IMG/VR virus record: IMGVR_UViG_3300025096_000028
Location: 1 to 52,649 of that record
DNA: 52,649 nucleotides
Source: a virus
Lineage: Duplodnaviria > Caudoviricetes
Strand: one strand, 5' to 3'
Of the stretch, positions 8,928 through 35,851 are shown piece by piece. The notes under the pieces were generated by a model. It ran no database searches and was not told where the DNA came from. It saw nothing but the letters and a program-made list of their open reading frames with translations. Position numbers and translations under genes: made by a program. Within the stretch, counting starts at the first letter, position 1. Every line of letters begins with the position of its first letter.

Positions 8928-11900
8928 ATGCCAGATGATAATATATTTGAACAGTCTTTACTTCAAAGGCTTGCAAGAGGAGAAGAGGTAGAAGATAACA
9001 CTTTTGATATAAAAAATCGTGTATCTAATTACGAACAAAATATATCAACTCAAACTCCTAAACCTAATCAAGATTTATCTAAATTACTACAAGAAAGAGC
9101 CGAAAGAGCAGGAAGACCTCCTTCTAAAAAACAATCTGATGTATATAGCTATGAAGATAGAGTAGATTTTTCTGGAAACCCTACTGATAGAGTTCATTTT
9201 TGGGAAAGTGAAAGGTCCTTAATGGAACAACTTGGTAGAGGTTCAGCAATGTTTGGAGAAGGGATTGTTGACCAAGCGCTTTTAGGTGCTCCAAGTACAT
9301 TTACTGATTGGGAAGATATTGCTCCTGACCCAGAAACTGGCTTAGAAAGATTTATGCAAATGAGTGGAGAAACTATTGGTTTTATTCTTCCATTTATGGC
9401 TACTAAAGGAAGGACTAGCGCAGCAGCTCAAAGCAGTAAAGCTGGAGCAAAAACTGGTCTCAAACAACTTGAAACATCTGTTGATGCTGCTATATCTAAA
9501 AAGAATTTAAAATTTGATTCCAAATTATACAAAACTGCAGATGACGCTAAAGATTTTATTGTAAAACAAGCAACTGCACTTACAGTTGGAAATAAACTGT
9601 CAAATTTTGCTAGAATGAGCGCAGTTCAAAAAACTAAATTTTCTCGTGATATGCAACACAATACTGGTAAAATGATTAAAGAATTTGTAGCAAAACAAGG
9701 AATTAGAGGAATTGATGATGAGGCGGTAAAACTTATTAGTAAAGATATGGGAACATGGTGGACATCTATTGATGGTAGAGTAGTATCAAGTCTAGAAGAT
9801 TTAATGACTAACAATCTTATGAAACGTAATTTATTTGCAAATTGGGATACAACTGGAAAATATGCAGCTTATATGGGCGGAATGATGGAAGAAGCAGCTT
9901 TATTTGCTATGGTTGAAGGTATGGCTTTAGGAGTGCAAGATTTATCTTCAGCTGATTGGTGGGGATATAAGCCTAAAGCGTTAGATGGAGAGAATAAAGT
10001 TCCTATAGGAATTATGGATTATTTAAAAACTGGAATACATGCATCTGTATTTGGTGCAGCTTTAGGATGGACACGTGCTGCGATTCCAGGTGGGGTTAGA
10101 GGTGGAGTATTTAAACAAATGAAAGGTTCTAACTTAGATAATATAAATTCAATGTTAAATGGTCCAGGTACTAATTTTGCAAAAGGTATTAAAACAACTA
10201 CTAAAGAAGGTAGACAATCTTTAAATCATATGCATAGAGCTTATGGACAAATAGATGACCTTATTTTAAAAGATAAAGAGTTGGGAACAGTAGGTATTCC
10301 TACGGTACTAGGAAAAAAAGCACGAAATCATCCATCGTTTAAAAAATTACCAGAGAAGTTTAGAAATAAAGAACTTTTCCTACCAGAAGATTTAGCTAAA
10401 CTAGCATCTGATGAAACTCTTACAAGAGCTCAAAAAATTGCTATTGCTGAAATTCAACAAGATGGCTTACAACATTTAGCTAAAAGAGTTAGAACTGATA
10501 TGAGAGTCGCATTTGCAAAAACAATGAAAGCTGATTGGTTTGGAGGAACTGTAAATGGAGAAAGAATAATGGGAAGTTTTCCTAGAGTATTAGCTGGTGG
10601 TACATTATTTGGCGTTCAGGGTTGGATAGACCCGAATGTCCCTATGGATGATAAAATATTTCATACTATGTTAGGTATGGCATTCTTAAAGGGTGGTAGA
10701 GACTTGCAATTTAAAGGAAGAGATGTTTCTTTAGATAGAATGACAAATAGATGGAATTCTAAATCTTCAGGATTATTTGGTAGAACTAGTGCTGATTTTC
10801 CTAAAAATTTAGAAATATTAAGCGAAATAAACTCAACAACTGGAGTAGATGTAGGTAATAGAGGTGTTTGGGGACCTATTTTCAATAGAATAGAACAAGA
10901 TAGGATTGATTTTTGGGACCAAGTACAACCAGTTGGAGGTGTCAATGAAAAAACAAGCACTTTTCATAAAAAGGTTTTAGAGAAAGATAAAAAGGGTAAC
11001 TATAAATATTTAGTAAAAGAAAAATTTGATACAGATGGAAATGATATAACTTTTAAAGGTGATACAGATTTAAAGCTAAAAGGACCTAGAGACCAATTTA
11101 TTCCTAATTATATATATTGGTCAAGAAATGTACAAAGTGCTTTCAATAAAGAAGGAAATAAAATTATACCAGAAGGCTATAGAGTAAAAGATATTACTAT
11201 GCAAGAATTAAAATCTTCAGAAGCTCGTGGTATGGAGAAGATGTTCAAAGAACTAGATGTATTTAATTCATTTGATATGTGGAGATATTTGACTAAATCA
11301 GGAGGTTTGCATATTAAAAAGGGTGTTGATATGATGGTAAGTGACATGATAAAGACAGACTTTCTTATTAGACCAGATGGAAAAAAATATAGTCTTGTAG
11401 GACAAACAAACGATGGATTTACAAAATTATCCCCTATTGACTCTAGTCGTTTAGATTTATCAAAAATGAGTGATGCACACAAAGAAAATCAATTACATAT
11501 TGAACAAGCTCTTGATACTTGGAATAGAGTTGTTGACTTAAATCATAGAAATAGTGATATGCCTTTTTCCCAAATAGGACAACCTATAAAAATTGATAAT
11601 AGAACAAGCGGCTTGATAGAATGGGCTAATCATATACAATCATCTCAAGAAAGATTTAGTGATAGATTAAAACCGATGGGATTTAAAAAAATAATTAAAA
11701 TTGATAATTTTCTTGAAGCTCAATATGACATATTTAATGATTTCAATAGTGTAGATAAAAGCATTAGCGTATTAAAAAAATTGTATGAAACAAAACAAGA
11801 CAAATTAGAACCTTCTGAAAAAAGAATATTAGATAAAATTAATGATGCAATAAAAACAGAAAAAGATGGAAAGATTACAGATTTAGTTTTAGTGTCTGAT

Positions 11901-14900
11901 AGTCCAACCTCAAATATAAATAAAAAACAAAGTCTTTTTATTAACTCTATAAGAGATGCAGCTAGAAATATTCCAGGACAAAAATCAGTAAGACCTAATG
12001 TTACTGAAAGACCGACTCTGGAACAAATGAAAAGACTTGAAGAAGGTAAAGATATTAAAAAAATATCTAATAAAGATATTAATGAAATAATGGAATTTTT
12101 TCATAGAGAAGGAGTAACTATTTGGTCTAATGGATACAAAAAAATGAAACAACTTGAAGATTTCACAGAAACTGTTGTAAAATTTCAAGCTCATGAATCT
12201 CTAAAAAAATCAGAATTTCCAGTACTTGACGCTGAAGGAAAAGTTATAGGAAAAACACCGTTTAGTTTGAAACATTTTAATGTAATTCAAATCTTAAAAG
12301 AACAGGGTATTGTTGATAGTTTTCTAGGAGTCACTAAAGATGTTCAATTATTTGGAGAAAGTTTGACCTCTTTTAACAAAAGACAAAAAAATCTTAATTT
12401 TGATAAAATGTTTGAAGAAATAGATAAAAAAGGTCTAGCAGACTACAAAAAATCTTTAGAAGATGCTAATCTTTCTCAAGTAGAAATAAATAATAGATTA
12501 AAAATCTATGAATCATTTAAAGATATGGCTGAAAATCCAAAAACAATAGATATGAAAATGCAAGAAATTAATGCTCTTATAGATAATCTTACTAATAAAT
12601 ATAGACCAGAATTAGGTTCTTATACTGGTGTATTAAGTCCCCATACAAGACAAACTCAAATTTTAATTCCTAGCAATCAAGCTCAACTTTTATACATTAA
12701 ATTAAGCGAAGTTTTAACTCAAGAAAAATATGGAAAAGAACAAATTTTTCATAAAAAATTATTTGATATGGATTCAAACCGACCAAATGACCAAAGACAT
12801 AGTGCTATAATGAAAATGATTACCGCTGACTTAATGACTAGCAGAGAATCAAGTGTAAAACAATTTGATGCCGCTGTTTTAAGTAAATTGTACGATGTAA
12901 CAAAAAATGAATTTGCATGGAATAAAGATAGATATGTGGACAAACTTGAGCCAGGAGACCTTATGATGGCTCTTAAATCTGAATTAAAAAAATTTAATTC
13001 TATTATGGAGAATGGTTGGGATTACTCTAAAAGACAAATTAAAGAACGATACGAAAATTTTGAACAATTAGATATGACTAAAGATTCAGAATTAATGTCA
13101 CAATCTTGGACAGTAGACCATTTATTAGAATACAATCTTGGAGAATGGACCTCATTAGAAGAGGGTGTAAGTAAAAGAAAATACTTACATAATAATATTT
13201 TTATAAAAGAATTTTATGGAGACGTTGCTAAGTTTAATCTAAAATTCAAAGAACAATTAGAATTACATAATAGCGAATTTAGAGATAATCCAAATCTTAC
13301 ACAATCTGTGCTAATGAAAGTTTCAACAGATTTAGTAAACTCAAAAGATAGACCAATCATTGAAATAGACTTAAAAGATAAAGCCAGAACAACAAGAGAA
13401 GATATTTCAGTTACTCAAAGTATTAGAGATGGAATAATTGAAAAACTAATTAGCGACCCAGCTCAACAAGCATTTGGTATAAAAAATAAAATTATTTATG
13501 TTAAAAGTACATTAAAAAATAGAGAAGGAAAAGAAGCAAGTTTATTTGATAAAGATATGTATATAGATGCAGCTGATGCAGCATATAACGGAGAATTACC
13601 TTATATGCCTAAAAATCCTAAAGATATGGTATCAGAATATCAGGGTAGGGATGTAGAAAGACCATCTGATTTAAAAATTGAGACAACAGGACAAGGGGAA
13701 GTTTTACCTAGATTAATGTTTTATCTTCGTCATCCTAATAGTATGAAAGGAAAAATTGACTCATTTAAATTAAATGATAGTTTAGTTGATACTGTTTTGA
13801 ATACTTATCTTAAGACTTTATATAAAGATGGTCAAAAAGAAATGGCAGATAAATTTATTGCTGATAATAACGTAAAAAATGAACAACGTATAGACCCAGT
13901 AACAGAAGAAATTGTTACTATTAAAGATTCTTGGACTTTTGGAGGTAAAAATCAATCTCCATTATTTTCTGATTTTAATGTTTTCCCTATAGAACCAACA
14001 TTAGGTAGACAATTATTTAGAGACATGCTTTATACTTTAGAGTTAAGAGAAATAAAAAAAGAAAAAGGATTAGATAATTTTTATAAAGAACTATCGCAAG
14101 ACCCAGAGCTTCATGCTCTAGAACAGACAAGAATCAAGATAGTTGATAATTCTAATTCTGTTCGCCTTGATAAACCTTTATTAAAGAAACATTATGAATT
14201 TATGTCAGAATCTAAAGTAGAGTTTGAAGGCAAAAAAGATATTCTTGAAATGAATCAAAGAGCTACAAATAGTCATCCAGAAGGTAGGACAATTAAAAAA
14301 GTTGTAATTAGAGATGAAAATTTAAATGGTAAAGTTGCCGAAATTGTGAGTGTACAAAATAGGCTTATAAAGGGACTAGAAAAGTTAATAAACAATCCTG
14401 AAACAAACATTTATTCTAAAAAAATCTATGAAAGAGAACTTGAAAATATAAAAGATTTATATAAAAATCAAGGCTATGGTGAGGTGTCTGCTGGAGATTC
14501 TTATATGATGGTTACTAAAAAGTTTCATGATTTTATGGATTACACTAGATTCGGAAGAGAGCCAGGCACTTCTAAATCTGGTGGTATTAAAGCGCATTAT
14601 GCAGATATAAAAAATCCTAAACTATTTGGTTTATACAAAACATTTCTTCAGAAACACAAAATGATGGAAAAAATAGTAGAAGGAACAGATGTAGAAGTAG
14701 TTGTTTTTAACACTGCATCTAAAAAAATGGGTCAAAATTATCACAAAGAAATGGCAGAGAAGTTTATTTCTTTAGATAACTTTACTTCAGAAAATTTTAA
14801 TTTAAATAGTTTAAAAGAGAAAATAAAAGATAAAAATACTCATATACCTGTAGATATAGAAGGATTTAGTATTATGTACAGAAAAGGCAATAAAACTGAT

Positions 14901-17900
14901 GTTCCAGCTCCAGCTAATCAATCTTTACATTTTGACATGTTAACTTCTTCAAAAGAATTAGGAGATTCCAATGTAATGAATCAATTCATTAGAGATATTT
15001 ATGGAAAAAAATTGGAGACAGCAAATGAAAATGCTAGAAGAATTGGTAAAACTCAATACATGAATGAACAAATAGCAAAATTAAAACAATTAGTAAATCG
15101 TAAAAGTATTCATAATGCTGAAAGTATGGAAGGGTTTGTTTTAGGAGAAGGTGATATGAAAGTCGCCAAATTACTTACTATGTTTGATGCTCCTCCTCAA
15201 TTAGGTGGAGTTACTATGACTGAGTTGTTATTAAAAGATATATTTAGTGAATCTTTAAATCCTAAAGTTTCAGGTTCACATGCTGTATTTGCTCCAGATA
15301 TAAGATTTAAAAAAGATGGAACTTTGGAAAATCCTTTAAAAATTCCTATTGTTGATAAAGATACAGGAGAACATTTTCAATTAGGAGAAATTATAGTTCC
15401 TCATGATTTCAGAACTAGACAAACTAATATAGATAAAATTACAATAGAAATTCCTAAAAAAGGAGAAAATAATATAATTGTAAATGGTTCTGAAGCATCA
15501 AAACATGGTATAACATTAAGAGAAAATGGTACTATGTATGATTACGCAAAAAACGGACAACAAACTCCATTATATCAAGTTAAAGTAGATATGTATGAAC
15601 ATCAAGGAAGAAGAAGTAAAGATGGAGACCCAGCTGATATATGGGTTGTTAAAGATTTAAAAGAAGCAAATGAACAATTACAAGCAATGAAAGAAGGTCC
15701 AGGAGGAGCTGTAAACTTTGCTAATAAGATTGTAAAAAATAAGAATATAGAAAGTGGAGAATATATATTAAGGGACAACAAAGCTGATAGAGGTGACCAT
15801 AAATATATTTATATTAAAGGTAGTAAAGCTCATAAAGAACTATTAAAAGAAGAAATTATCGTTCCTGACACAAATGGAAATTTAACAGTTAGACAACAAG
15901 CTCTTCAAAAAGACCCTAAAAAAGTAAAAGGAAAACAATATATTAAAGGAGCTGAAATACCATATAATGTGGTTTTATTCGCAAGAAGAGACCCTTACTA
16001 CAAAGAAGGTAGTGTAGTTCCTGTTGCTTTAAAAGATTTTAATGAAAGAGATAATGGAAATCAATTTATATTAAATGATAAAGATGCTTTCCATCACGTT
16101 GAAACAGATATGGATGGAGATACTGCATCTATTTCTCACAGCTATTCTAAAGAAGTTTCTAAAGAATTTATGAAGATTGCTTCTCAAGCGATGGCTACAC
16201 AAGTTAGACCAACAAATGGAAATGCTGCTTACGAAACTCTTACAAGTGGTCCTTACAATCCAATGAAAGAAATAAGTCAATTAGAATATTCTGAAGTACA
16301 AGCAAGAGCAGCTAGATTGAGAGGAAGTGTTATGCAAGTTTCTCATATTGCTCATTGGTTTTTAAATAACAATAGTCGTAATGACCTTAGGATATTGAAT
16401 GAAAAGGGAGATGCAGTTTTTTATGAAGGACCTATGTTCCCTATATCTGGTACTGATAAAGGAATTCAATTATTTTTAGGAATAAGACAAGAAGTTAGAG
16501 ATAAACAGGGAGCAAGTAGGTTTAGACAAGAATTAGCTAAAGATATTCAAACTTTAGTAGATACAGCTAAAGGTGAATGGGATACAGAATATTTTAGTAG
16601 TGCTAGAGATATAACTAACAGATTATTATTTCATAAAGACTATGGATTATTTGTTCCTATGAAAAGGCAGAAGAGAAAAGATGGAAAATATAAAGACGAA
16701 CTTGTATGGATTGAACAGCCTAATATTGATTTCAGAAGAGACCATGTTACCGCATTTCAAGCAATAGAAAAATTATGGATGATTAAAAAAGATTCTTTAA
16801 AATTTAGAAACAATGAATTGAATGCAGATGGTAGTATGAGAAAGCCTAAATTTAAAGATAGAAAAGCAACAATGGATAGATATGGTGAAGAATTGTCTTC
16901 TTTTGAATGGAGTGAAGAAGCTAATGCCCTAAGAAATGAAATGGGATGGAGTCAAAGTCAGCAAATACTTCGTGGATTTGGTGATAATGCTAATTTTATG
17001 AGAAATAAAAATGGAACAAGCAATATGGGAATGATTGATAGAATTGACTATTCTATGCATAGCGGGATTAACCATGGATGGAAATGGAAAAATACTGATA
17101 CAGATATTACAAGTCTTGTAGAAAGTACAATAGATAAATTTACAGCTACTAGAGAAAGAGGCGAAAATAATAAGTATTTAAGTGATGCCGAGCATTATAA
17201 TAAAATAATAGAGGCATTCAACAAAGAAACTAAAGAAGTTGGTGCAAAATTTTATATGCTAGAAACTCTTCAAAATCAAGTAGCTGAATTAAGAAATGAA
17301 AGAAAAGGTCTTACAGGCAATGACGCTTCTAGTGCTGCTAAACTTACAGCTCAGATAGAGGCTAAAAAAGTTCTTATAGAGAATATGAAGAAAATTGAAC
17401 TAAAAGAATATTTAGATGTAGATTCATATTTTACAGACAAAGCAAAATTAAAACCTAAAGTTAAACAATTTCTAGATTCTGTTTTTAATGATTATAAAAT
17501 AAGAGAAGAAAGAATATTAAAAGAAGAAAAAGGAGATAATTTCTCTGTTTTAGATGCAGATGCTAAGAGCAAAATAGAAGCAAGAGCTAAAGCAAGTATG
17601 GAAAAAAATGGTATTAATATTGAACAAGTATCTAGGGGAGATGTATTAGAAGCTATGGCTGCTGAAAGAGCATTTGGTAATTTAGCTGAATCTACTCCTG
17701 GACTTTTGAAAGTGAATGCAGAAACTCATAAAGAATTAATTAATATCATAGATAATCTTAAAAAAGATTATAGTGAAGCTATGTTAAAAGAATATAAGCC
17801 AAAAGAATCATCAGGATTTATAAATGATAATTATATTGTAGATATTTATAGAGAACAATTATTAGGTATATTACGTGCTGATAAATATCAAAATCCAGCT

Positions 17901-18689
17901 TTACAAGAATTGGTTTTTAGAAGATTAATGTCTCCAGAAATTCAAGCAAATAAAATTGGAAGTTATAGAGGTAATTTGTACTTTATGCCTAAATATACAA
18001 ACTTTCACAAATTTGTAAAATTGGGAATGCAAACATCTATGGAATTTCATCAGGGAATACCTTCAAGATTAGAGCCTCTTTGGAAACCATTTTTTAACAA
18101 TTATAAAAGACAAGTTTTAGCAATGCAAAATGGAATTGCTGGAGAAGGAACTTTAAAAGATGGTAAAATGACTCCTGAAAATTGGAGAGTAGAACATTTA
18201 ACTATGGGTACTAGATATAATAAATTAAGATTATTAGAAGAATTAATTCCAGAAGCTGATAATATTTTTGGTAAAAGAATTACAGAACTGGATAACTATA
18301 CAATAGATAGTATAATATTTAATGGAGGATTTATTCCAGAAATTATTAACAATAATAGAATTACTAACTTACCATGGAAAGCTGTTACAGACATCAGCGC
18401 AGAATATGGAAGAGATTCAGCAATATATGGTAAAAAAGAATCAGATATAGCTATAGACCAAAATAATGCTAGAGCATTTTATATAGATAAAGATAGAAAT
18501 TCTTTTATTAGAGATTTGCAAACTAATAATACATTAAAATCAAATGAGACATCTCAAAATCTAACACAAGAACGTTCTGTGGATGTAGAACGAAGTTTAG
18601 AAGAATATGAAAGAAAAAGTCAAGAAGAAACAGAACAACCAAAAGAAGGTATATTATGTTCTGTAACAGAAGTAATAAAGGGAGATTAA
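8928..18689 (+). CDS. Giant virion protein containing a single-chain two-barrel (DPBB) DNA-dependent RNA polymerase
   Basis: Beta-like motifs GDSYMMV (D1857), K1888, K1904, DVEVVVFNTASK; beta-prime-like VSGSHAVFAP, GEIIVP, R2354-D-P, catalytic DMDGD (aa 2394-2398, nt 16107-16121), bridge-helix-like LVDTAK; hydrophobic N-terminal helices; one Cys. Confidence 0.8.
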   Translation: MPDDNIFEQSLLQRLARGEEVEDNTFDIKNRVSNYEQNISTQTPKPNQDLSKLLQERAERAGRPPSKKQSDVYSYEDRVDFSGNPTDRVHFWESERSLMEQLGRGSAMFGEGIVDQALLGAPSTFTDWEDIAPDPETGLERFMQMSGETIGFILPFMATKGRTSAAAQSSKAGAKTGLKQLETSVDAAISKKNLKFDSKLYKTADDAKDFIVKQATALTVGNKLSNFARMSAVQKTKFSRDMQHNTGKMIKEFVAKQGIRGIDDEAVKLISKDMGTWWTSIDGRVVSSLEDLMTNNLMKRNLFANWDTTGKYAAYMGGMMEEAALFAMVEGMALGVQDLSSADWWGYKPKALDGENKVPIGIMDYLKTGIHASVFGAALGWTRAAIPGGVRGGVFKQMKGSNLDNINSMLNGPGTNFAKGIKTTTKEGRQSLNHMHRAYGQIDDLILKDKELGTVGIPTVLGKKARNHPSFKKLPEKFRNKELFLPEDLAKLASDETLTRAQKIAIAEIQQDGLQHLAKRVRTDMRVAFAKTMKADWFGGTVNGERIMGSFPRVLAGGTLFGVQGWIDPNVPMDDKIFHTMLGMAFLKGGRDLQFKGRDVSLDRMTNRWNSKSSGLFGRTSADFPKNLEILSEINSTTGVDVGNRGVWGPIFNRIEQDRIDFWDQVQPVGGVNEKTSTFHKKVLEKDKKGNYKYLVKEKFDTDGNDITFKGDTDLKLKGPRDQFIPNYIYWSRNVQSAFNKEGNKIIPEGYRVKDITMQELKSSEARGMEKMFKELDVFNSFDMWRYLTKSGGLHIKKGVDMMVSDMIKTDFLIRPDGKKYSLVGQTNDGFTKLSPIDSSRLDLSKMSDAHKENQLHIEQALDTWNRVVDLNHRNSDMPFSQIGQPIKIDNRTSGLIEWANHIQSSQERFSDRLKPMGFKKIIKIDNFLEAQYDIFNDFNSVDKSISVLKKLYETKQDKLEPSEKRILDKINDAIKTEKDGKITDLVLVSDSPTSNINKKQSLFINSIRDAARNIPGQKSVRPNVTERPTLEQMKRLEEGKDIKKISNKDINEIMEFFHREGVTIWSNGYKKMKQLEDFTETVVKFQAHESLKKSEFPVLDAEGKVIGKTPFSLKHFNVIQILKEQGIVDSFLGVTKDVQLFGESLTSFNKRQKNLNFDKMFEEIDKKGLADYKKSLEDANLSQVEINNRLKIYESFKDMAENPKTIDMKMQEINALIDNLTNKYRPELGSYTGVLSPHTRQTQILIPSNQAQLLYIKLSEVLTQEKYGKEQIFHKKLFDMDSNRPNDQRHSAIMKMITADLMTSRESSVKQFDAAVLSKLYDVTKNEFAWNKDRYVDKLEPGDLMMALKSELKKFNSIMENGWDYSKRQIKERYENFEQLDMTKDSELMSQSWTVDHLLEYNLGEWTSLEEGVSKRKYLHNNIFIKEFYGDVAKFNLKFKEQLELHNSEFRDNPNLTQSVLMKVSTDLVNSKDRPIIEIDLKDKARTTREDISVTQSIRDGIIEKLISDPAQQAFGIKNKIIYVKSTLKNREGKEASLFDKDMYIDAADAAYNGELPYMPKNPKDMVSEYQGRDVERPSDLKIETTGQGEVLPRLMFYLRHPNSMKGKIDSFKLNDSLVDTVLNTYLKTLYKDGQKEMADKFIADNNVKNEQRIDPVTEEIVTIKDSWTFGGKNQSPLFSDFNVFPIEPTLGRQLFRDMLYTLELREIKKEKGLDNFYKELSQDPELHALEQTRIKIVDNSNSVRLDKPLLKKHYEFMSESKVEFEGKKDILEMNQRATNSHPEGRTIKKVVIRDENLNGKVAEIVSVQNRLIKGLEKLINNPETNIYSKKIYERELENIKDLYKNQGYGEVSAGDSYMMVTKKFHDFMDYTRFGREPGTSKSGGIKAHYADIKNPKLFGLYKTFLQKHKMMEKIVEGTDVEVVVFNTASKKMGQNYHKEMAEKFISLDNFTSENFNLNSLKEKIKDKNTHIPVDIEGFSIMYRKGNKTDVPAPANQSLHFDMLTSSKELGDSNVMNQFIRDIYGKKLETANENARRIGKTQYMNEQIAKLKQLVNRKSIHNAESMEGFVLGEGDMKVAKLLTMFDAPPQLGGVTMTELLLKDIFSESLNPKVSGSHAVFAPDIRFKKDGTLENPLKIPIVDKDTGEHFQLGEIIVPHDFRTRQTNIDKITIEIPKKGENNIIVNGSEASKHGITLRENGTMYDYAKNGQQTPLYQVKVDMYEHQGRRSKDGDPADIWVVKDLKEANEQLQAMKEGPGGAVNFANKIVKNKNIESGEYILRDNKADRGDHKYIYIKGSKAHKELLKEEIIVPDTNGNLTVRQQALQKDPKKVKGKQYIKGAEIPYNVVLFARRDPYYKEGSVVPVALKDFNERDNGNQFILNDKDAFHHVETDMDGDTASISHSYSKEVSKEFMKIASQAMATQVRPTNGNAAYETLTSGPYNPMKEISQLEYSEVQARAARLRGSVMQVSHIAHWFLNNNSRNDLRILNEKGDAVFYEGPMFPISGTDKGIQLFLGIRQEVRDKQGASRFRQELAKDIQTLVDTAKGEWDTEYFSSARDITNRLLFHKDYGLFVPMKRQKRKDGKYKDELVWIEQPNIDFRRDHVTAFQAIEKLWMIKKDSLKFRNNELNADGSMRKPKFKDRKATMDRYGEELSSFEWSEEANALRNEMGWSQSQQILRGFGDNANFMRNKNGTSNMGMIDRIDYSMHSGINHGWKWKNTDTDITSLVESTIDKFTATRERGENNKYLSDAEHYNKIIEAFNKETKEVGAKFYMLETLQNQVAELRNERKGLTGNDASSAAKLTAQIEAKKVLIENMKKIELKEYLDVDSYFTDKAKLKPKVKQFLDSVFNDYKIREERILKEEKGDNFSVLDADAKSKIEARAKASMEKNGINIEQVSRGDVLEAMAAERAFGNLAESTPGLLKVNAETHKELINIIDNLKKDYSEAMLKEYKPKESSGFINDNYIVDIYREQLLGILRADKYQNPALQELVFRRLMSPEIQANKIGSYRGNLYFMPKYTNFHKFVKLGMQTSMEFHQGIPSRLEPLWKPFFNNYKRQVLAMQNGIAGEGTLKDGKMTPENWRVEHLTMGTRYNKLRLLEELIPEADNIFGKRITELDNYTIDSIIFNGGFIPEIINNNRITNLPWKAVTDISAEYGRDSAIYGKKESDIAIDQNNARAFYIDKDRNSFIRDLQTNNTLKSNETSQNLTQERSVDVERSLEEYERKSQEETEQPKEGILCSVTEVIKGD

Positions 18690-18690
18690 T

Positions 18691-21576
18691 ATGGCTTCAA
18701 TAAGAATATGTGCTAAATCAAATAAACAGAAAAAAGAAATAAGAGCTGCACTTCAATTGCATGCTTCTAAACTTGGTCAATGGATGGGAGAAAAAGGTTT
18801 TGATAGTAGAGATATGAGGCTTACTTGGGACCAAATAAAAATGAAAACTGTTGGAGCAAAAGCTGGTATGGATGGAGATTTTAGGATAGAACATTTGCAA
18901 AAAATTCCTAAAGTAATTGCTACAGCAAAATATAGATTAACAAGAAATAGAAATGATATAGTTAATGCTATTCTTCAGCCTCAAGACAGGGCTAAAGATT
19001 GGGGTGTAGTTGACAGGTTTAATGAAAATATATTTCGTTCTGTTAATGAATATGCAGGTAATAATCAAACAAACGCTGCTTCATATCAAAACCTTTGGAA
19101 ATTTATAGCAGAAGGTTCAGCTATACTAGGAGCAAAATCAAGAAATAATCCTTTAGGTAAAATTTATAAAAATCCAAATCAACTTGCTAAAGTTGTTGAT
19201 AGGCTATTTTCAGAATATGATTTAGCTCAAGCAAATGGAGATGTAAACCTTGCAAGAGAATTATATGAAGGAAATCCTAGAAAAGGAATAGTTGGAATAA
19301 ATAAGATAATGAGACAAGGGCAAGGTAAAATATTTAAAGAAGTGTATGATTTAATTTTGCAACCAAAAATAAATAGCGGTGGAAAATTAGGATATAAAGA
19401 ATTTGCAGAACGAAGGGGATATACTGAACAAGCTAAAAATGCAGCAGAGATATGGCATAATGAATTACATCCAAGAGGAAGAATACAAATAAAAAAAGGT
19501 ATAGAAAATTTTAGAAATTCAATAAAGAATAAAAGACATATATTTGGGCACTTAACAGATTCAAATGGTCGTTTATTATATGATAGAGTTGTTAAAAATC
19601 TTGATGGTGTAATTAAAGAATACAATGATAGAAAGAATCAAAAGGAAGGATTTTATCCTATATTTTCAATGGAAGTTTTACCTTCTATAACTGAAGCTTC
19701 TAGATTAATGCTTCATGCAAACAAAAAGAATCCAGAAAAAGATATTCGACAGGGAGCAAGTGTATTAGAAAAAATAGAAAAAGTATTTAAAGAAAATAAA
19801 AATTTGCATACAAATTTAAGAGATAACAAAATTAATAATGATAAAGCTAGTGCTAACATATTTTATGTATTAGATGCATATAGTAAAAATGCTTCTAGAT
19901 TTAATATGGTAACTTATAATACAGCTCAATATTTAAAAGTTATGGAAAGTTTATATAAGTTTGAAGGAACTGAGATGGAAACTAAGATGAAACAAATGGA
20001 AGAATTTATTGACCATCAGTATTCAATTATTAGTGGTCAAAAAGCTGGAGAGAATAAAGCATTAAATGATATTACAAGAGCTATAACATCATATCAATTT
20101 GCTTCTAAGCTAGGTTTAAACCTTAGAAGTGCGGCTAGAAATGCAACTCAAAGTTTATTAAATTATGTTCATTTTGGAGCTATTAATTTATATAAATCAT
20201 ATAAAGAAATGCTAGACCCTAAAATGAAAACAAGAATAAATCAAGGGCTACAAGATAATGGTATTTTATTTGCAGACCTTAAAGAGGGACCTCTGACTGG
20301 TTTTATTAATAAATCTGAATATAGTCTTGAAAAAGGAATTTTTGAAACTAAAAAAGGAGTAAATGCTGATTACTTACATAGATTTGCAGATTCTATTGAC
20401 AAAATAGCAGATACAACAGGTTGGGCTATGCAATTTGTTGAGAATAAATTAAATCGTAAGTTAACATATAAAATTGGATATAGTTTAGCTTGGAAAAGCA
20501 TGAAGAGTGATAATACTTATCACCAACAATTATTTATGAATCAAATTAATAAACAATTAAAAAGAGAAGGTATTTCTAAAGGTGAAATAAAAAAATTAGA
20601 AGCCAATAATTATAGAGATTTGCAAAAAGAAGGAACTCATCAAATATTTAAGGAAGGAGATTCTACTCACATGCAATTTTTGTATGAAAATTATTTACGT
20701 AGAAAAGCAAATAATGCTGGTGTTTGGGCTACTAGAGAACTTCATTATGATTATTCAGCTACAGGAAAATCTCAATTTATGACTACTAAACCTGGTGCTG
20801 TAATGTTTCAATTCCAACATTTTAGTATGAGTTATTTTAATTATCAAAGAAAGATAGCAAGAAATTATGCAGAAGATTTATCTTCTGGTTTGTGGAATAC
20901 CCCAGAAGGTGGTAGAGCTTTTAGATTAGCAATGCTATATGGAGTAATAACTCCTTTATTTGAAGTTGCAATTCCTGGAGGAGCAAGATTTAGCAACCTT
21001 GTACAAAACGATACAGCAGAAAGAATTATTCAAATTAGAGATTATATATTAGAAGGAAATGAAGGTATGACCACAGATTCTAAAGGTAATTTAGTTGAAT
21101 ATGATAAGAGAGAAGGTAGAGGTTCTTTTTATGGAAAAGGTCCTTTTATTGGTTTATTGGGTGGACCTATGATTTCAGACTTAGTTACTTTAAATAATTT
21201 AGCGGATTTATATGATTTAGATGAAGATGGATGGGCAGCTATGCTTAGTGGTTATCAAGATTATTCAGATAAGTCAACAAATGAAAAATGGGATATTCTC
21301 TGGAAGACAATAAATAGAGGTAGTCAAAGAATGACAAATTTTTGGACTGGAAAAGGAACTTTTGGAAGCCAGGTTCAAAGTAGTTTTGGGTTGTTTCCAA
21401 ACCAGGATATTTTGGACAAAAGACAACAGGTTAGAAGTTGGTTTGAAAAATTGGGGATTATGGAACCTGATAAAAAGAAACCTAAAACAGTTAAACCTCG
21501 AAGTATATCTCCTGATATAGATAAAAGCTTAACTACTTTAGGTAGAACTGGTGGTAGAGCTGCGGGAAGTTATTAA
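18691..21576 (+). CDS. Large ejection/cargo protein
   Basis: LGLNLRSAARNATQ and HYDYS...MFQFQHF motifs resemble C-terminal regions of large podovirus ejection proteins; one Cys at residue 7. Confidence 0.6.
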   Translation: MASIRICAKSNKQKKEIRAALQLHASKLGQWMGEKGFDSRDMRLTWDQIKMKTVGAKAGMDGDFRIEHLQKIPKVIATAKYRLTRNRNDIVNAILQPQDRAKDWGVVDRFNENIFRSVNEYAGNNQTNAASYQNLWKFIAEGSAILGAKSRNNPLGKIYKNPNQLAKVVDRLFSEYDLAQANGDVNLARELYEGNPRKGIVGINKIMRQGQGKIFKEVYDLILQPKINSGGKLGYKEFAERRGYTEQAKNAAEIWHNELHPRGRIQIKKGIENFRNSIKNKRHIFGHLTDSNGRLLYDRVVKNLDGVIKEYNDRKNQKEGFYPIFSMEVLPSITEASRLMLHANKKNPEKDIRQGASVLEKIEKVFKENKNLHTNLRDNKINNDKASANIFYVLDAYSKNASRFNMVTYNTAQYLKVMESLYKFEGTEMETKMKQMEEFIDHQYSIISGQKAGENKALNDITRAITSYQFASKLGLNLRSAARNATQSLLNYVHFGAINLYKSYKEMLDPKMKTRINQGLQDNGILFADLKEGPLTGFINKSEYSLEKGIFETKKGVNADYLHRFADSIDKIADTTGWAMQFVENKLNRKLTYKIGYSLAWKSMKSDNTYHQQLFMNQINKQLKREGISKGEIKKLEANNYRDLQKEGTHQIFKEGDSTHMQFLYENYLRRKANNAGVWATRELHYDYSATGKSQFMTTKPGAVMFQFQHFSMSYFNYQRKIARNYAEDLSSGLWNTPEGGRAFRLAMLYGVITPLFEVAIPGGARFSNLVQNDTAERIIQIRDYILEGNEGMTTDSKGNLVEYDKREGRGSFYGKGPFIGLLGGPMISDLVTLNNLADLYDLDEDGWAAMLSGYQDYSDKSTNEKWDILWKTINRGSQRMTNFWTGKGTFGSQVQSSFGLFPNQDILDKRQQVRSWFEKLGIMEPDKKKPKTVKPRSISPDIDKSLTTLGRTGGRAAGSY

Positions 21577-26004: not shown

Positions 26005-26252
26005 TACATTCTACTCCCTGCTGTAATTTCATCGTATTTATCTTTATTGCCTCCGCATTCTTCGGCAATCTTTTCACACCAATCAAAGTATGTCATTGGA
26101 GACACTTCATCATTGCAATTATTACACCAATAATTAGTATAATCATCTGGTTCTGTAATCTTACCAGTGTTCATATTAACCCATGCTTTTTCATCTACTT
26201 CTTCTGTACCGCAATAATCGCATACCCACATATCATCCATATCTTTGCTCAT
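26004..26252 (-). CDS. Zinc-ribbon protein
   Basis: CDYC...CNNC pairs. Confidence 0.65.
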   Translation of the reverse strand: MSKDMDDMWVCDYCGTEEVDEKAWVNMNTGKITEPDDYTNYWCNNCNDEVSPMTYFDWCEKIAEECGGNKDKYDEITAGSRM

Positions 26253-26482
26253 CTTTCATCCTTTTTTCTAAATTGCTCTATCCATGTATTTTGATATTTT
26301 TTAGGAGATGATAGACCTGAAAATATCCACCAACCTCTACCATTTTCTTTTGCAAGTTTTTCAGATATTTCATTATGCTCTTTTGTATAAGCATAAACTG
26401 TTTTATAACTTTTAAGTCTTTCTTCAAAACTGCTTTCACATTTTAAGGGATTGTTGTTTTTATCATGTAAACTTAAACTCAT
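26249..26482 (-). CDS. Hypothetical protein
   Basis: AAGGAG SD; ATGA coupling. Confidence 0.65.
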   Translation of the reverse strand: MSLSLHDKNNNPLKCESSFEERLKSYKTVYAYTKEHNEISEKLAKENGRGWWIFSGLSSPKKYQNTWIEQFRKKDER

Positions 26483-26505
26483 ATTTTTTTCTCCTTTTTA
26501 AGTTT

Positions 26506-26897
26506 TCAGAACTGAGATAGGATGTCCTAAATTAATAGAACTAATTATTTCCTACATCACCTACCTCTATTCTGATGTTATAGAAAGATTCGCTTCAAAT
26601 ATGAGCTCAAACTCTGTCCCCAACCGATTATATTAAAGGTATCGCCCTAGGGTTCGGTCCGTCATTGAGTTTTACGATATAAGTTTTCTTCATATCAACT
26701 TTCTAATTATTACTACAGAATAAGGCAAAACCTTGTGTACCTGGTATTGAATAGTTATCGGTCTTCAACTATCACAAGGAATGATTACATGTGCGTCTTC
26801 TGTAGTTTTACTAGCAAGTTTCAGAACTGAGGTGAGGCTTTGTTGGAATGATTTAATCGGTTTTCCTAAAGTTCCGAACCTTCCACCTCTATTCTGA
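26506..26897 (-). ncRNA. Array of four stem-closed structured RNA elements (26506-26575, 26581-26705, 26712-26806, 26821-26897)
   Basis: Each element is bounded by an inverted repeat; first and last share UCAGAAUAGAGGU...CUCAGUUCUGA; G-U pairs fit the - strand. Confidence 0.65.
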
Positions 26898-26946
26898 TTT
26901 AAGCCACTCAGGAACCTTTATTAAGAAGCTATCTCCTTTTAGGAAC

Positions 26947-27720
26947 CTAAGCTCTTGCTAATCTTGTTATTGTTGGATAAATCTGATTCTCCATAATATG
27001 AATAGACTCTCTATCTCTATGTGCAACGTGTGTCGCTACATAAGTACAAGCATTCAATAAATCCCAATATGTATTCATATTATTATTTAAACAATACCTT
27101 GTAAAATCTTCCATATATTGTTGTGGAATCAATTTAGCCATATCAACTAAATGTTTACTTCTTAACTTAGTCTTTGTTAGTCTTGGAAATTCTGTTTCAA
27201 ACATCTGAACTAACATAGCAACTGTATCAGTAATAGTACTATCTATTTCACCAATACTAGTATTATTATTCTTATGTACAGCTTTCTTCTTTGTTAAGAC
27301 ATTACCAATTGTCAATCCATTTAAGCATACAAGCCTAAATGCACCACCCATAATATTAACAGATGTAGTACCATCGTAACTATTTGCTACTATTAATTGT
27401 GGATTTATTAAATCTCCTTTTTCAATTTTAACTTCAGTCTTAGGGAAATTCCATTTCCAAATAGCTCTTTGACCATTTGAGAATGTTCTAGCTTCTGATA
27501 ACTCAGCACCAGAACCTTTTAATACTTTTTGAACTTTATTAACAACTGATTTGTTGTCAACTACTTTGTATTCATCAGTCATACAAGATAATACATCTCC
27601 TGTATCTTCTCTTATGATGAATTTATGACCTGTTCCTTCTGTTCTCATTACATCATCTGCGAGAACTGCTGGAACCTCCTTTACTGGAAACAGCGTTTCC
27701 TCCATTGCTACTATAGACAT
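26947..27720 (-). CDS. DUF932-family protein
   Basis: IIREDTGDVLS..YKVVDN, NSYDGTTS and FRLVCLNGL motifs. Confidence 0.8.
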   Translation of the reverse strand: MSIVAMEETLFPVKEVPAVLADDVMRTEGTGHKFIIREDTGDVLSCMTDEYKVVDNKSVVNKVQKVLKGSGAELSEARTFSNGQRAIWKWNFPKTEVKIEKGDLINPQLIVANSYDGTTSVNIMGGAFRLVCLNGLTIGNVLTKKKAVHKNNNTSIGEIDSTITDTVAMLVQMFETEFPRLTKTKLRSKHLVDMAKLIPQQYMEDFTRYCLNNNMNTYWDLLNACTYVATHVAHRDRESIHIMENQIYPTITRLARA

Positions 27721-33977: not shown

Positions 33978-34026
33978 ATTTACCTCTTTTATAAGTTTAA
34001 TTTATTTTCTGTTTTTACCTCAATAT

Positions 34027-34333
34027 TTAGATAGCATAACTTGTGAAACTAATCTCACAACAGGCTCTTAACCTCATGCTGTTAGTGCGACTAACATCCA
34101 TGTGTGCTTATTTGATTAATGCCGCCTTGCTATTTCCGCTCATTATACTAGTATAAATATAATAATGCTTGTATTAAAGATTTTATACAAGTTCACGTTT
34201 TCGCTCGGATAGGTCTTGTTACCAAAACCAACTTGACAAATACGTATTATGCTTAATCTGTATGACAAAATCTATCATCTACACATAATTCATTTTATCT
34301 AACGCTCAACTATTGACTTTCTATACTATCTAA
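34027..34333 (-). ncRNA. Large (about 307 nt) multi-hairpin structured RNA candidate
   Basis: 12-bp closing stem UUAGAUAGUAUA/UAUGCUAUCUAA (one G-U) enclosing at least six hairpins. Confidence 0.55.
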
Positions 34334-34340
34334 TTAATCA

Positions 34341-34437
34341 TAAGGGAGACACGAGGTAAAGCGTCTTTTTCTCTTTGTTCTAAATAAAGTTGATGACAAC
34401 CATCTCTCTCGAACTCTGATAATAAAAGTCTCCCTTA
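34341..34437 (-). ncRNA. Stem-closed element with 77-nt insert
   Basis: Perfect 10-bp inverted repeat TAAGGGAGAC/GTCTCCCTTA; strand inferred from the surrounding operon. Confidence 0.55.
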
Positions 34438-34448
34438 ATAAATCATTT

Positions 34449-34745: not shown

Positions 34746-34902
34746 CTTTTACCTCTTTTCAATGTTATGTAGTAATTTTTCTCTATCAATTGGTTAGCTC
34801 TACCTTGACAGCACTAATACAAGTTAGTGTTACTACACCTTTTAATAATGTTACGGATAGCTATCCTTGTATATGATTCATCATCCATAAATTCTTTTTC
34901 TC

Positions 34903-34927
34903 TAAGGGAGACTTTAAGCCTCCCTTA
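34903..34927 (-). repeat. Short hairpin sharing its stem with the 34341-34437 element
   Basis: UAAGGGAGGC-UUAAA-GUCUCCCUUA on the - strand; no U-tract follows. Confidence 0.7.
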
Positions 34928-34928
34928 T

Positions 34929-35123
34929 TCATAGTCTATTAGCGATTACATTGAACCACTGATAGTGTCTAGGATAATCTATCTCCATTGTCTTTAATAA
35001 TTCAGACGTTGAAATATGATAGCAGTAACCTGTGTCACGTACATACCATACATCTCTGCCTTCATAACTAAGACGAAGATAGCCTGTATCACTATTCAGA
35101 CTATCGGTTAAACGAATATACAT
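34929..35123 (-). CDS. Hypothetical early protein
   Basis: Start revised to ATG 35123 after a maximal SD AGAAAGGAGGTGA. Confidence 0.7.
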   Translation of the reverse strand: MYIRLTDSLNSDTGYLRLSYEGRDVWYVRDTGYCYHISTSELLKTMEIDYPRHYQWFNVIANRL

Positions 35124-35477
35124 TTCGCTCACCTCCTTTCTTATTAGTTGACTCTTAATCTCTTTTATTTAAGAAAGGATTATATTTATACTTAATAGAT
35201 AATATTGTTTTATATAACAATTAAACTATATACACGCAATAGTATTATAGACAATACTATCTATCAAGTACTGAAATTCCACTCTATTTCAAATTGCGTA
35301 ACTTCATTCCATATAATCATAAAATAACTGATTATATATTCTCTATCTTATGATATTTTAAGTTTAAACGCTAAAGCACATTTAATGAGTGGCTTAAACA
35401 TACTTTATTATTTAAACCCCTAGACATCTTTATTTAGAGTTGCTTTGTCTAGTTTCTACAACTACAACTTAACTAAT

Positions 35478-35637
35478 AGGTAAGTAGTTAATAAACATTG
35501 GTGAGAGCTAGCGGTGCATATGATTCAACCCTCTTCGACAAAGGTAATCAATATCCCGTTCTCTATGGTTAATGCGTGTCTAGTCAAGGTCATCCTTGAA
35601 AGTGTCGCTAAGCACATATTTACCAACTACTTTACCT
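35478..35637 (-). ncRNA. 160-nt structured RNA candidate
   Basis: Long closing stem with two G-U pairs on the - strand; inner helices GCUUAGCG/CGCUAGC, UCAAGG/CCUUGA, UGAUU/AAUCA. Confidence 0.6.
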
Positions 35638-35647
35638 CAATTGTAGT

Positions 35648-35717
35648 TTATCCCCATGTTATACACATATTACTATATAATAGGGTATATTATCCACATG
35701 TTATCAACATATTACTA
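35648..35717 (+). promoter_or_regulatory. DnaA-box cluster (candidate replication origin) within a 28-bp direct repeat
   Basis: TTATCCCCA 35648, TTATACACA 35659, TTATCCACA 35690, TTATCAACA 35701; the two repeat units differ at 3 positions. Confidence 0.7.
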
Positions 35718-35758
35718 GTTTAATCCAGTTATACAGTTTAATATTGAGTAGATAGGTG

Positions 35759-35808
35759 AAATAAAAATAATAATAGAAGTGGGGGAATACCTTTCGGGTC
35801 CCCCTTCT
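35759..35808 (-). terminator. Intrinsic terminator
   Basis: AGAAGGGGGACCC-GAAA-GGUAUUCCCCCACUUCU then a U-rich tail, downstream of 35852-36322. Confidence 0.65.
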
Positions 35809-35851
35809 GTTTCAAGGGTCTTCTAAACCTCAACATTTCTGTTAGTTTAAA

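Follow-up and report, generated by a model that had tools for sequence, protein, structure and literature searches.

A 464-nt gap (positions 26483-26946) in the genome of an uncultured marine virus is occupied by an array of four RNA-type modules, here called A to D, each of which folds as a single stem-closed domain on the minus strand. The window analyzed is the whole of one 52.6-kb record (IMG/VR record IMGVR_UViG_3300025096_000028, 52,649 nt, with an estimated completeness of 63%), and the gap, for which the minus strand is the RNA strand, lies between minus-strand open reading frames (ORFs) at 26947-27720 and 26249-26482. The two outer modules belong to a strand-specific, RNA-type family of clamp hairpins, designated H, whose pairing is selected on the sense strand and which is absent from Rfam. 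Close relatives differ by the gain, loss or exchange of entire modules, and inserts are conserved independently of their stems. The explanation that we tentatively favor is that the gap is a co-transcribed island of stem-clamped functional RNAs, each of which would be set free as a small, stable RNA and would work by binding a partner.

Four stem-closed modules in one intergenic gap

Modules A and D, at the two ends of the array, are H-family hairpins. Module A (26821-26897, minus strand; 77 nt; insert type 6) has a fold z of -3.08 and scores 50.9 bits with R1, the covariance model for H; its base consists of 7 bp, an A•A mismatch and then GAGGUG/CACCUC. Module D (26506-26575, minus strand; 70 nt; insert type 11) has a fold z of -3.29 and an R1 score of 57.4 bits on the sense strand, carries a G·U pair within GAGG/UCUC, and ends 23 nt ahead of the start codon of the next gene. 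Module A is found in identical form in the related locus L081 and at 96% identity in L015, L052 and L066, and module D has an identical copy in L013. The closing helix of both is UCAGAAU/GUUCUGA, and both contain UAGGAAA in their interiors. They also share 13-nt arms: TCAGAATAGAGGT occurs exactly at 26575 to 26563 and at 26897 to 26885, and CTCAGTTCTGAAA at 26516 to 26504 and at 26831 to 26819, all on the minus strand, with no further exact copy of either in the window.

Between these hairpins lie two larger domains. Module B (26710-26810, minus strand; fold z -2.95) is a domain of about 100 nt (99-101 nt; folded as 26710-26808) closed by CUACAGAAG/UUCUGUAG, and its closing helix contains ACAGAAG/UUCUGU. 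Module C (26581-26708, minus strand; fold z -2.10) is a 128-nt multi-helix domain closed by UAGAAAG/CUUUCUA, with a covarying hairpin, GAUAUGR...YCAUAUY, and a 6-bp helix, GACCGA/UCGGUU, in its interior. Short A/U-rich linkers separate the modules. No ORF of 40 aa or more is present in the gap, and its direct repeats are limited to the two 13-14-nt arm pairs and two weak pairs of 15-24 nt. A sequence-only reading of the window had proposed four stem-closed elements here, with AGAA/UUCU in their closing helices and with arms and an internal UAGGAAA common to the outer two. All of these features are present, AGAA/UUCU being seen in each of the four modules, and the wider proposal, that the minus strand carries a string of RNA-type modules which fold independently of one another, is supported.

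The array is most simply part of an operon transcript, given that neither a promoter-like nor a terminator-like site was found in 26483-26946. The five promoter-like sites that were found, against a chance expectation of 10.1±3.3, all lie inside the upstream gene, which belongs to the DUF932 family. H hairpins are followed by AUAA..., not by a U run.

The H family of clamp hairpins

The exact two-arm pattern of H, TCAGAATAGAGG-N(30-60)-CTCAGTTCTGA, occurs in 25 IMG/VR contigs, and a similar pattern is found in 53 stretches from metagenomes, some of which are Tara Oceans scaffolds. A slightly relaxed pattern yielded 47 distinct sequences, sorted into 22 insert types, from 79 loci. L059 and L085, which hold a look-alike, were then removed from the family counts; what remains is 46 distinct sequences, 52-133 nt long, from 77 loci of marine viruses or metagenomes (L059 is still one of the 42 rows of alignment A1). 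The reuse of one stem around different inserts, suggested earlier from the two window hairpins, now extends to 21 insert types on one base.

The fold common to all members is a 7-bp base, UCAGAAU/GUUCUGA, which ends in U·G and is followed by the A•A mismatch and by GAGG/CCUC. Above this helix come at least four further pairs of free sequence and then an insert of about 20-100 nt. The consensus of the clamp is UCAGAAU·A·GAGG…CCUC·A·GUUCUGA, with AA before it and A after it: the base at -1 is A in 65 of 65 cases, that at -2 in 60 of 65, and that at +1 in 63 of 65. The commonest sequence downstream of the clamp is AUAAUAUU.

The look-alike that was set aside is a 76-nt sequence with all 24 arm letters of H, found in Bacteroidales genome bins (L028 and L030) and in their metagenome twins, the contigs L059 and L085. 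It lies within a 617-aa ORF in L059, scores 44.5 bits with R1 in all of these except L030 (36.6 bits), and was judged unrelated. A looser pattern detected nine stretches in bacterial and archaeal genomes, which is near the estimated chance number; seven of the nine have no second helix and score 26-33 bits, and the remaining two are L028 and L030. As the sequence-only reading had anticipated, no known Rfam family accounts for these elements: with gathering scores as the threshold, Rfam 15 matched nothing in the window and nothing in 14 related loci, and a search of the gap and two long arrays with E-value thresholds gave only chance-level matches (E at least 0.24), far under the cut-offs.

Pairing at the RNA level and the sense strand

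Covariation was analyzed on 42 aligned H members, with 500 shuffles and a partner-sliding control. Standard pairs make up 98.9% of the cells, against 93.1% in the shuffles and at most 46.3% with slid partners. Six pairs vary on both sides, in 43 cells, and none of the 500 shuffles reaches any of the observed measures. Members recovered with the relaxed pattern include the covarying variants GAAG/CUUC, GAAA/UUUC and GAGA/UCUC of the GAGG/CCUC helix. The U·G wobble at pair 7 is retained in 41 of the 42 members and the A•A mismatch in all 42, which is unlike a DNA palindrome, a symmetric protein site or the product of template-switch repair, since none of these would retain them.

The covariance model also separates the two strands. 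In the window, module D gives 57.4 bits in the sense direction and 24 bits in the antisense direction, the latter being the only antisense match in the window; for hairpin A no antisense match is listed. Across 80 sources (610,780 bases), sense scores range from 33.3 to 67.9 bits, with the lowest belonging to long inserts, and antisense scores from 25.4 to 38.6 bits; wherever both strands of a hairpin are listed, the sense strand scores higher. Of 88 distinct contexts, 86 have H on the coding strand, two are ambiguous and none has it on the opposite strand.

Gain, loss and exchange of modules

BLAST comparison of the window with all loci breaks near the module borders (27000 to 26907, 26917 to 26885, 26818 to 26705, 26711 to 26575/26609, and 26580 to 26505), and related contigs stop matching the window at these borders or within about 10 nt of them. 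Assembled contigs from four RNA libraries, belonging to four studies, stop matching at 26575-26609, 26708/26710, 26807-26818 and 26907, with unlike letters beyond. Where they match B, the pieces extend from 26710 to 26807-26818, and where they match C, from a point within 26575-26609 to 26708/26710. Such contigs cover B and C in four studies, and those of run X22 cover nothing else of a 3.5-kb stretch, a lack of cover from which no conclusion is drawn. Two of them carry rearranged arrays: in one, of 940 nt, C and B are present with 186 other letters between them, and in the other C is joined to the end of the DUF932 gene, with 106 other letters replacing B and A.

Losses and replacements of whole modules are also found at the related locus L081, which is 100% identical to the window across A and C and has a different leader and a different insert on the base of D. 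It lacks B exactly, as a 101-nt indel with a TAGTAA direct repeat at its flanks. In 12 of 13 locus rows the modules are more closely conserved than the end of the DUF932 gene; for the L037 group, C is 95.3% identical, compared to 84.9% for the DUF932 end and 82.5% for the next gene.

The independence of inserts and stems is seen in three insert cores, each of which is found in two different closing stems. The first stands on the H base in six flank contexts; in L039 and L043 it is closed by a AAAGGUAAC.../...GUUACUUUU stem. The second is on the H base in L025/L053 and in L073, in a UUAGGAGUAGCAACAGA.../...ACUAGCUACUCCUA stem in three contexts, and in two more variant stems. The third is enclosed by a leader helix, AGUCAC/GUGACU, which covaries to ACUCAC/GUGAGU, and also by a CUAUAGG.../...GCCUAUAG stem. 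The arrays of relatives contain up to about seven modules, in ORF-free gaps of 97-681 nt. A second clamp family, UUAGGAGUAGCAACAGA.../...ACUAGCUACUCCUAUAA, with several different inserts, is present in the arrays of L037, L039, L041 and L043-L046, often directly ahead of the Shine-Dalgarno sequence of the next gene, and further modules, such as UUAGGCGGUGAUGGAUUAGCC...GCCGCCUAA, recur in the same arrays.

Stem-loops that mark exchange points have been described before. PeSLs (promoter-early stem-loops), as portrayed in two papers that describe them, consist of a sigma-70-like promoter and a terminator hairpin and occur in many copies across the hyperplastic regions of T4-type phages (PMC2839356, PMC4122927). 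By that account they resemble H in being short, conserved intergenic stem-loop motifs of a plastic early phage region, and in marking points of insertion, deletion or replacement between relatives, which H and the other module borders do as well. Identification of the array as a PeSL cassette was nonetheless rejected: the gap contains neither of the two transcription signals, no U run follows H, a genome has 0-2 copies of H at one locus, the inserts are large and conserved, and the cargo consists of non-coding modules. Relative to PeSLs as portrayed there, the scaffold-and-insert combinatorics, the use of non-coding modules as cargo and the confinement to one locus are new.

The array might also be selfish or neutral palindromic DNA, either nested and juxtaposed MITE/REPIN/BIME-like elements or quasi-palindromes perfected by template switching, accumulated at a permissive intergenic spot and with no RNA function. 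REP, BIME, REPIN and MITE elements are, like H, imperfect intergenic palindromes that are sometimes clustered or nested and may form hairpins in mRNA. The nesting observed here (a fixed base, a semi-conserved middle stem, a variable tip, and an insert found in several stems) fits insertion into loops, the indel of B is flanked by a 6-nt direct repeat, and 8-nt palindromes number 81 against 51.2±7.2 in shuffles, kin copies included. We nevertheless regard this explanation as improbable. The copies are not dispersed, being confined to one locus per genome; none of the 88 contexts is in the opposite orientation; and the non-Watson-Crick features, which template switching would erase, are kept. 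In addition, genes for a Y1 transposase (PF01797) or a tyrosine recombinase (PF00589, which a control search detected in 14 of 14 genomes) were not found in the window record or in four near-complete relatives, although a Y1 transposase could be encoded by the host. Dispersed REP, REPIN or MITE elements were rejected on these grounds. The palindrome count refers to perfect 8-nt palindromes in 32 arrays (10.5 kb), examples being CCCTAGGG, CTCTAGAG, CTGTACAG and GATGCATC, and many hairpin tips are self-complementary tetraloops. Restriction-site-like palindromes were considered and rejected, the excess being modest and inflated by kin copies.

The inner modules B and C

Modules B and C each consist of several helices together with unpaired stretches that do not vary, and each has copies of at least 95% identity in other contigs, next to different neighbors. 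A 23-nt word of B is found in four IMG/VR stretches and a 20-nt word of C in 12; with metagenome loci added, C is represented by 20 copies, 15 of them distinct, with identities to relatives of 94.6-100%. Copies of B are 97-98% identical in L046-L049, where the end of the DUF932 gene is just 77-78% identical. The first hairpin of C covaries among its copies (GAUAUGA.../...UUAUAUC, GAUAUGG.../...CCAUAUU and GAUAUGG.../...CUCAUAUC). The rest of the module is invariant in 13 of the 15 distinct copies, and two divergent copies replace CCCUAGGG by GGCAGCC. C also has an invariant GGGGACAG stretch.

Module C also contains a mini-ORF (26633-26695, minus strand) of 20 codons, or 16 in the two divergent copies, whose translation begins M-[KED]-K-[TY]-[YHR]-IVKLNDGP. 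Module C, and that module only, might be a tiny gene wrapped in RNA structure, with a product of 16-20 residues, an idea that is compatible with the other explanations. All 15 distinct copies keep the frame open, and the changes in the N and D codons of the two divergent copies are synonymous. However, the copies have a weak Shine-Dalgarno sequence (GAAAG) or, in L008, none at all, the C-terminus differs between copies (NPRAIPLI versus KAA), the changes in codons 2-5 are the compensatory changes of a hairpin, and in 13 of the 15 distinct copies the other 70 nt show no nucleotide change at all, not even synonymous drift. Taken on these points, a peptide-coding function is very unlikely.

Genomic context and the possibility of a role in cis

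H is not a general gene-junction mark. R1 places both H copies of the window in this one gap and finds one copy each in two near-complete relatives; in two other near-complete relatives it finds none, and the arrays at the same place in those genomes hold other modules. The early-region RNase III sites of phage T7 (R0.3-R1.3), on the other hand, lie at nearly every early gene junction. Like H, the T7 sites are hairpins of about 50-80 nt between the cistrons of a polycistronic early transcript, with common sequence and an interrupted stem. The H clamp likewise lies between co-oriented genes with no promoter or terminator and, with at least about 15-16 pairs around its A•A mismatch, offers RNase III a sufficient length of duplex. 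H differs from the T7 sites in being at a single locus per genome, in having exchangeable structured inserts as its upper half, and in the absence of a phage RNase III gene; a T7-like marking of most early gene junctions was rejected on the copy numbers given above. No gene for RNase III was found in the window record or the four near-complete relatives, and so any RNase III-like cut would need the host enzyme.

Several points weigh against the interpretation of the array as an island of released, partner-binding RNAs. In 37 of 72 contexts just 11-34 nt separate the 3' end of H from the next start codon, which fits a cis-acting role at least equally well, and in some relatives a single H hairpin is the entire intergenic region, in gaps of 97-99 nt. 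The strand asymmetry judged from one sequence is weak: the whole-gap fold z is -3.19 on the minus strand versus -1.87 on the plus strand, and the plus strand of module A folds equally well (-23.7 kcal/mol versus -22.0 kcal/mol for the minus strand). The assignment to minus-strand RNA, which the sequence-only reading had based on the window, thus rests on the family evidence, namely the kept U·G pair, the R1 scores and the co-orientation with neighboring genes. Many of the H loci are kin or contigs filed twice (for example, L015 and L052), so that the counts are of non-independent events. The search patterns largely fix the first and last 12 nt (pairs 1-12), leaving pairs 13-16 as the free evidence for pairing, and retrieval of module copies by exact words favors well-conserved copies. 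Finally, the RNA-library data are assembled contigs, which may include DNA; they show the presence of the modules and other module orders rather than transcription, its level or RNA ends.

The main rival explanation is that the hairpins are purely cis-acting punctuation. They would be intercistronic processing or stability elements that provide entry for host RNase III or RNase E or protect 5' or 3' ends and so uncouple the messages, with inserts that are mostly filler and with arms and linkers that serve as exchange homologies as a by-product. Beyond the proximity to start codons and the single-hairpin gaps just mentioned, this explanation has in its favor the variety of neighbors (H follows six upstream and precedes 14 downstream gene families, or five and 13 when L059 and L085 are left out), the conserved single-stranded A's at -1 and +1, the lack of a promoter or terminator belonging to the array, and the fact that exchanges fall at module borders, where the Sak annealase and PD-(D/E)XK nuclease of the phage could exploit short homologies. 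Punctuation in cis does not readily account for a restriction to 0-2 copies of H at one locus, when the early operon comprises about 30 genes. The inserts are also large and branched and are 95-100% conserved where flanking genes are 77-85% identical, the same insert is retained in different stems, B and C have several helices with invariant unpaired stretches, and arrays reach 580-680 nt. On balance we consider purely cis-acting punctuation somewhat unlikely, though to be taken seriously.

A DNA-level function could be envisioned from the surroundings of the array, which lies within a replication and recombination block (DnaB, Sak, PD-(D/E)XK nuclease). The hairpins might act as DNA or single-stranded DNA, either in recombination, as attC-like sites, or in replication, as an origin or a signal for priming. 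An integron attC site is built from a paired base that is conserved, one unpaired position, another short helix and a terminal structure that varies greatly, with the core RYYYAAC / GTTRRRY and the integrase IntI as partner. H has the same succession of a 7-bp base, unpaired position, second helix and variable tip, a similar size (52-133 nt), the orientation of its neighbor genes, and an association with cassette exchange. It differs in that its arms, TCAGAAT / GTTCTGA, agree with the core only in GTT and have no evident extrahelical bases, and in that the window hairpins flank non-coding modules rather than ORF cassettes; with PF00589 absent from all five records, an integron attC was rejected. 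The gap also has no iterons or direct-repeat families, and two complete relatives are entirely without H. A DNA site of any of these kinds is accordingly a most improbable explanation.

Other systems compared

Several further candidates were tried and rejected. A sponge of the CsrB/RsmZ type is not indicated by the GGA count over 32 arrays, 147 observed against 165.8 expected, just 35 of which are mostly unpaired. A ToxI-like or CRISPR-like repeat array does not fit, as the gap has no tandem near-identical repeats and the variable parts are self-complementary, unlike spacers. ARAGORN found no tRNA or tmRNA in the window or in 60 related loci, which excludes a tRNA/tmRNA cluster there. An antisense role had been among the functions put forward from the sequence alone; with respect to the phage's own transcripts it was not upheld, the longest complementarity being 14 nt, where 30 shuffles gave 12-16 nt. 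Inspection by eye of the surroundings of CUGAGUGA...GAAU revealed no fit to a hammerhead core. Some leaders contain UGGUCCGA, which recalls Y RNA, with no matching partner strand and no Rfam match.

In terms of architecture, the clamps resemble engineered RNA scaffolds (tRNA, three-way-junction and other man-made designs for displaying aptamers), in which a constant closing stem shields interchangeable inserts and an insert can be moved from one scaffold to another. We know of no natural phage counterpart of such scaffold-and-insert RNA, and a literature search, whose scope did not extend to supplementary motif lists, found no description of such arrays.

The window and the genes around the array

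The window has a G+C content of about 31%. Its virion proteins include a P22-like portal and an SU10-like capsid protein, and its minus-strand early/replication block encodes a Dam-type methylase in addition to DnaB, Sak and the PD-(D/E)XK nuclease. Protein searches found no close cultured relative (DnaB at most 30.4% and TerL at most 24.4% identity, with no match for the DUF932 protein), and blastn of the gap against 50,697 phage records gave no match.

The gene upstream of the array (26947-27720, minus strand) encodes 257 aa of the DUF932 family (PF06067, E 9.5e-23), and its stop codon immediately adjoins the array. The downstream gene (26249-26482, minus strand) encodes 77 aa, has AAGGAG ahead of its start, shows just a weak DUF5780 match under the Pfam cut-off, and is one of the 13 gene families seen downstream of H hairpins.

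The leader of the array (26898-26946, minus strand) is apparently chimeric, judging from the BLAST borders at 27000 to 26907 and 26917 to 26885 and from the alignment with L081. Its 5' part, to about 26907, resembles the leaders of L039, L043 and L044. Its 3' part terminates in ...CCUGAGUGGCUUAAA. Relatives have this sequence as the 3' strand of a helix that covaries and lies before the first H hairpin (AGUCAC/GUGACU, ACUCAC/GUGAGU or AGUUAC/GUAACU); the 5' strand of this helix is missing from the window. A quasi-palindromic sequence, AGGUYCCUGAG, is present as a direct repeat in the leaders of the window, L013, L039, L040 and L046, and seems to be the joint at which the window leader was assembled from two leader types.

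Other gene-free parts of the early region are the gaps at 33978-34448 and 34746-35851. A further stem-closed stretch of about 95 nt, AAGGGAGAC...GUCUCCCUUA, is located at 34340-34435 (minus strand), and a short GC-rich hairpin, AAGGGAGGC...GUCUCCCUU, at 34905-34930 (minus strand), both judged by eye only. The structural block contains an ORF of 3253 aa (8928-18689, plus strand) with no Pfam match at E <=0.001, and beside it an ORF of 961 aa (18691-21576) with only a borderline Alp7A-like C-terminal match (23 bits against a cut-off of 22).

A proposed role for the array and its significance

The interpretation that we tentatively prefer, an island of stem-clamped small RNAs, can be put in the following terms. 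The gap would be an RNA island in a minus-strand phage operon, in which modules are strung together and each is shut by its own clamp. The clamps would insulate the folding of the modules and protect their ends. Early in infection, host nucleases may free each module as a stable RNA of 50-130 nt, either by RNase III cutting across the clamp or by RNase E cutting in the A/U linkers that follow. The inserts would be the working parts, binding a host or phage partner, and the make-up of the island would vary among phages as it does in an accessory gene island.

Phage counter-defense and host take-over are nearly always credited to small proteins. That the modules might have a decoy or anti-defense role is speculation; the indirect pointers to it are the conservation of inserts independently of their stems and the differing module make-up of the locus in related phages. 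Carried further, the array could be the RNA counterpart of an accessory or anti-defense island, in which a few interchangeable clamps display a repertoire of aptamer-like inserts that each soak up a different host factor (an RNA-binding immune nuclease or toxin, for example, or a signaling nucleotide), and in which inserts and clamps are reshuffled by short-homology recombination to match hosts. This extended version is a long shot.

The findings concern a marine phage lineage that is present in many ocean metagenomes, including those of Tara, and that devotes 0.1-0.7 kb of a genome of about 50 kb to structured RNAs. In most cases these RNAs have diverged less than the genes on either side, and they are exchanged as complete units; the scaffold-insert arrangement works in two directions, with many inserts on one stem and one insert in several stems. 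If the inserts do bind partners, the arrays would constitute a ready-made natural library of small folded RNAs. If they bind nothing, phage operons would still have in the clamps a previously undescribed and cleanly delimited kind of signal between cistrons that is also a joint for recombination. In both cases the arrays supply no fewer than three new RNA motifs for curation, namely H and modules B and C.

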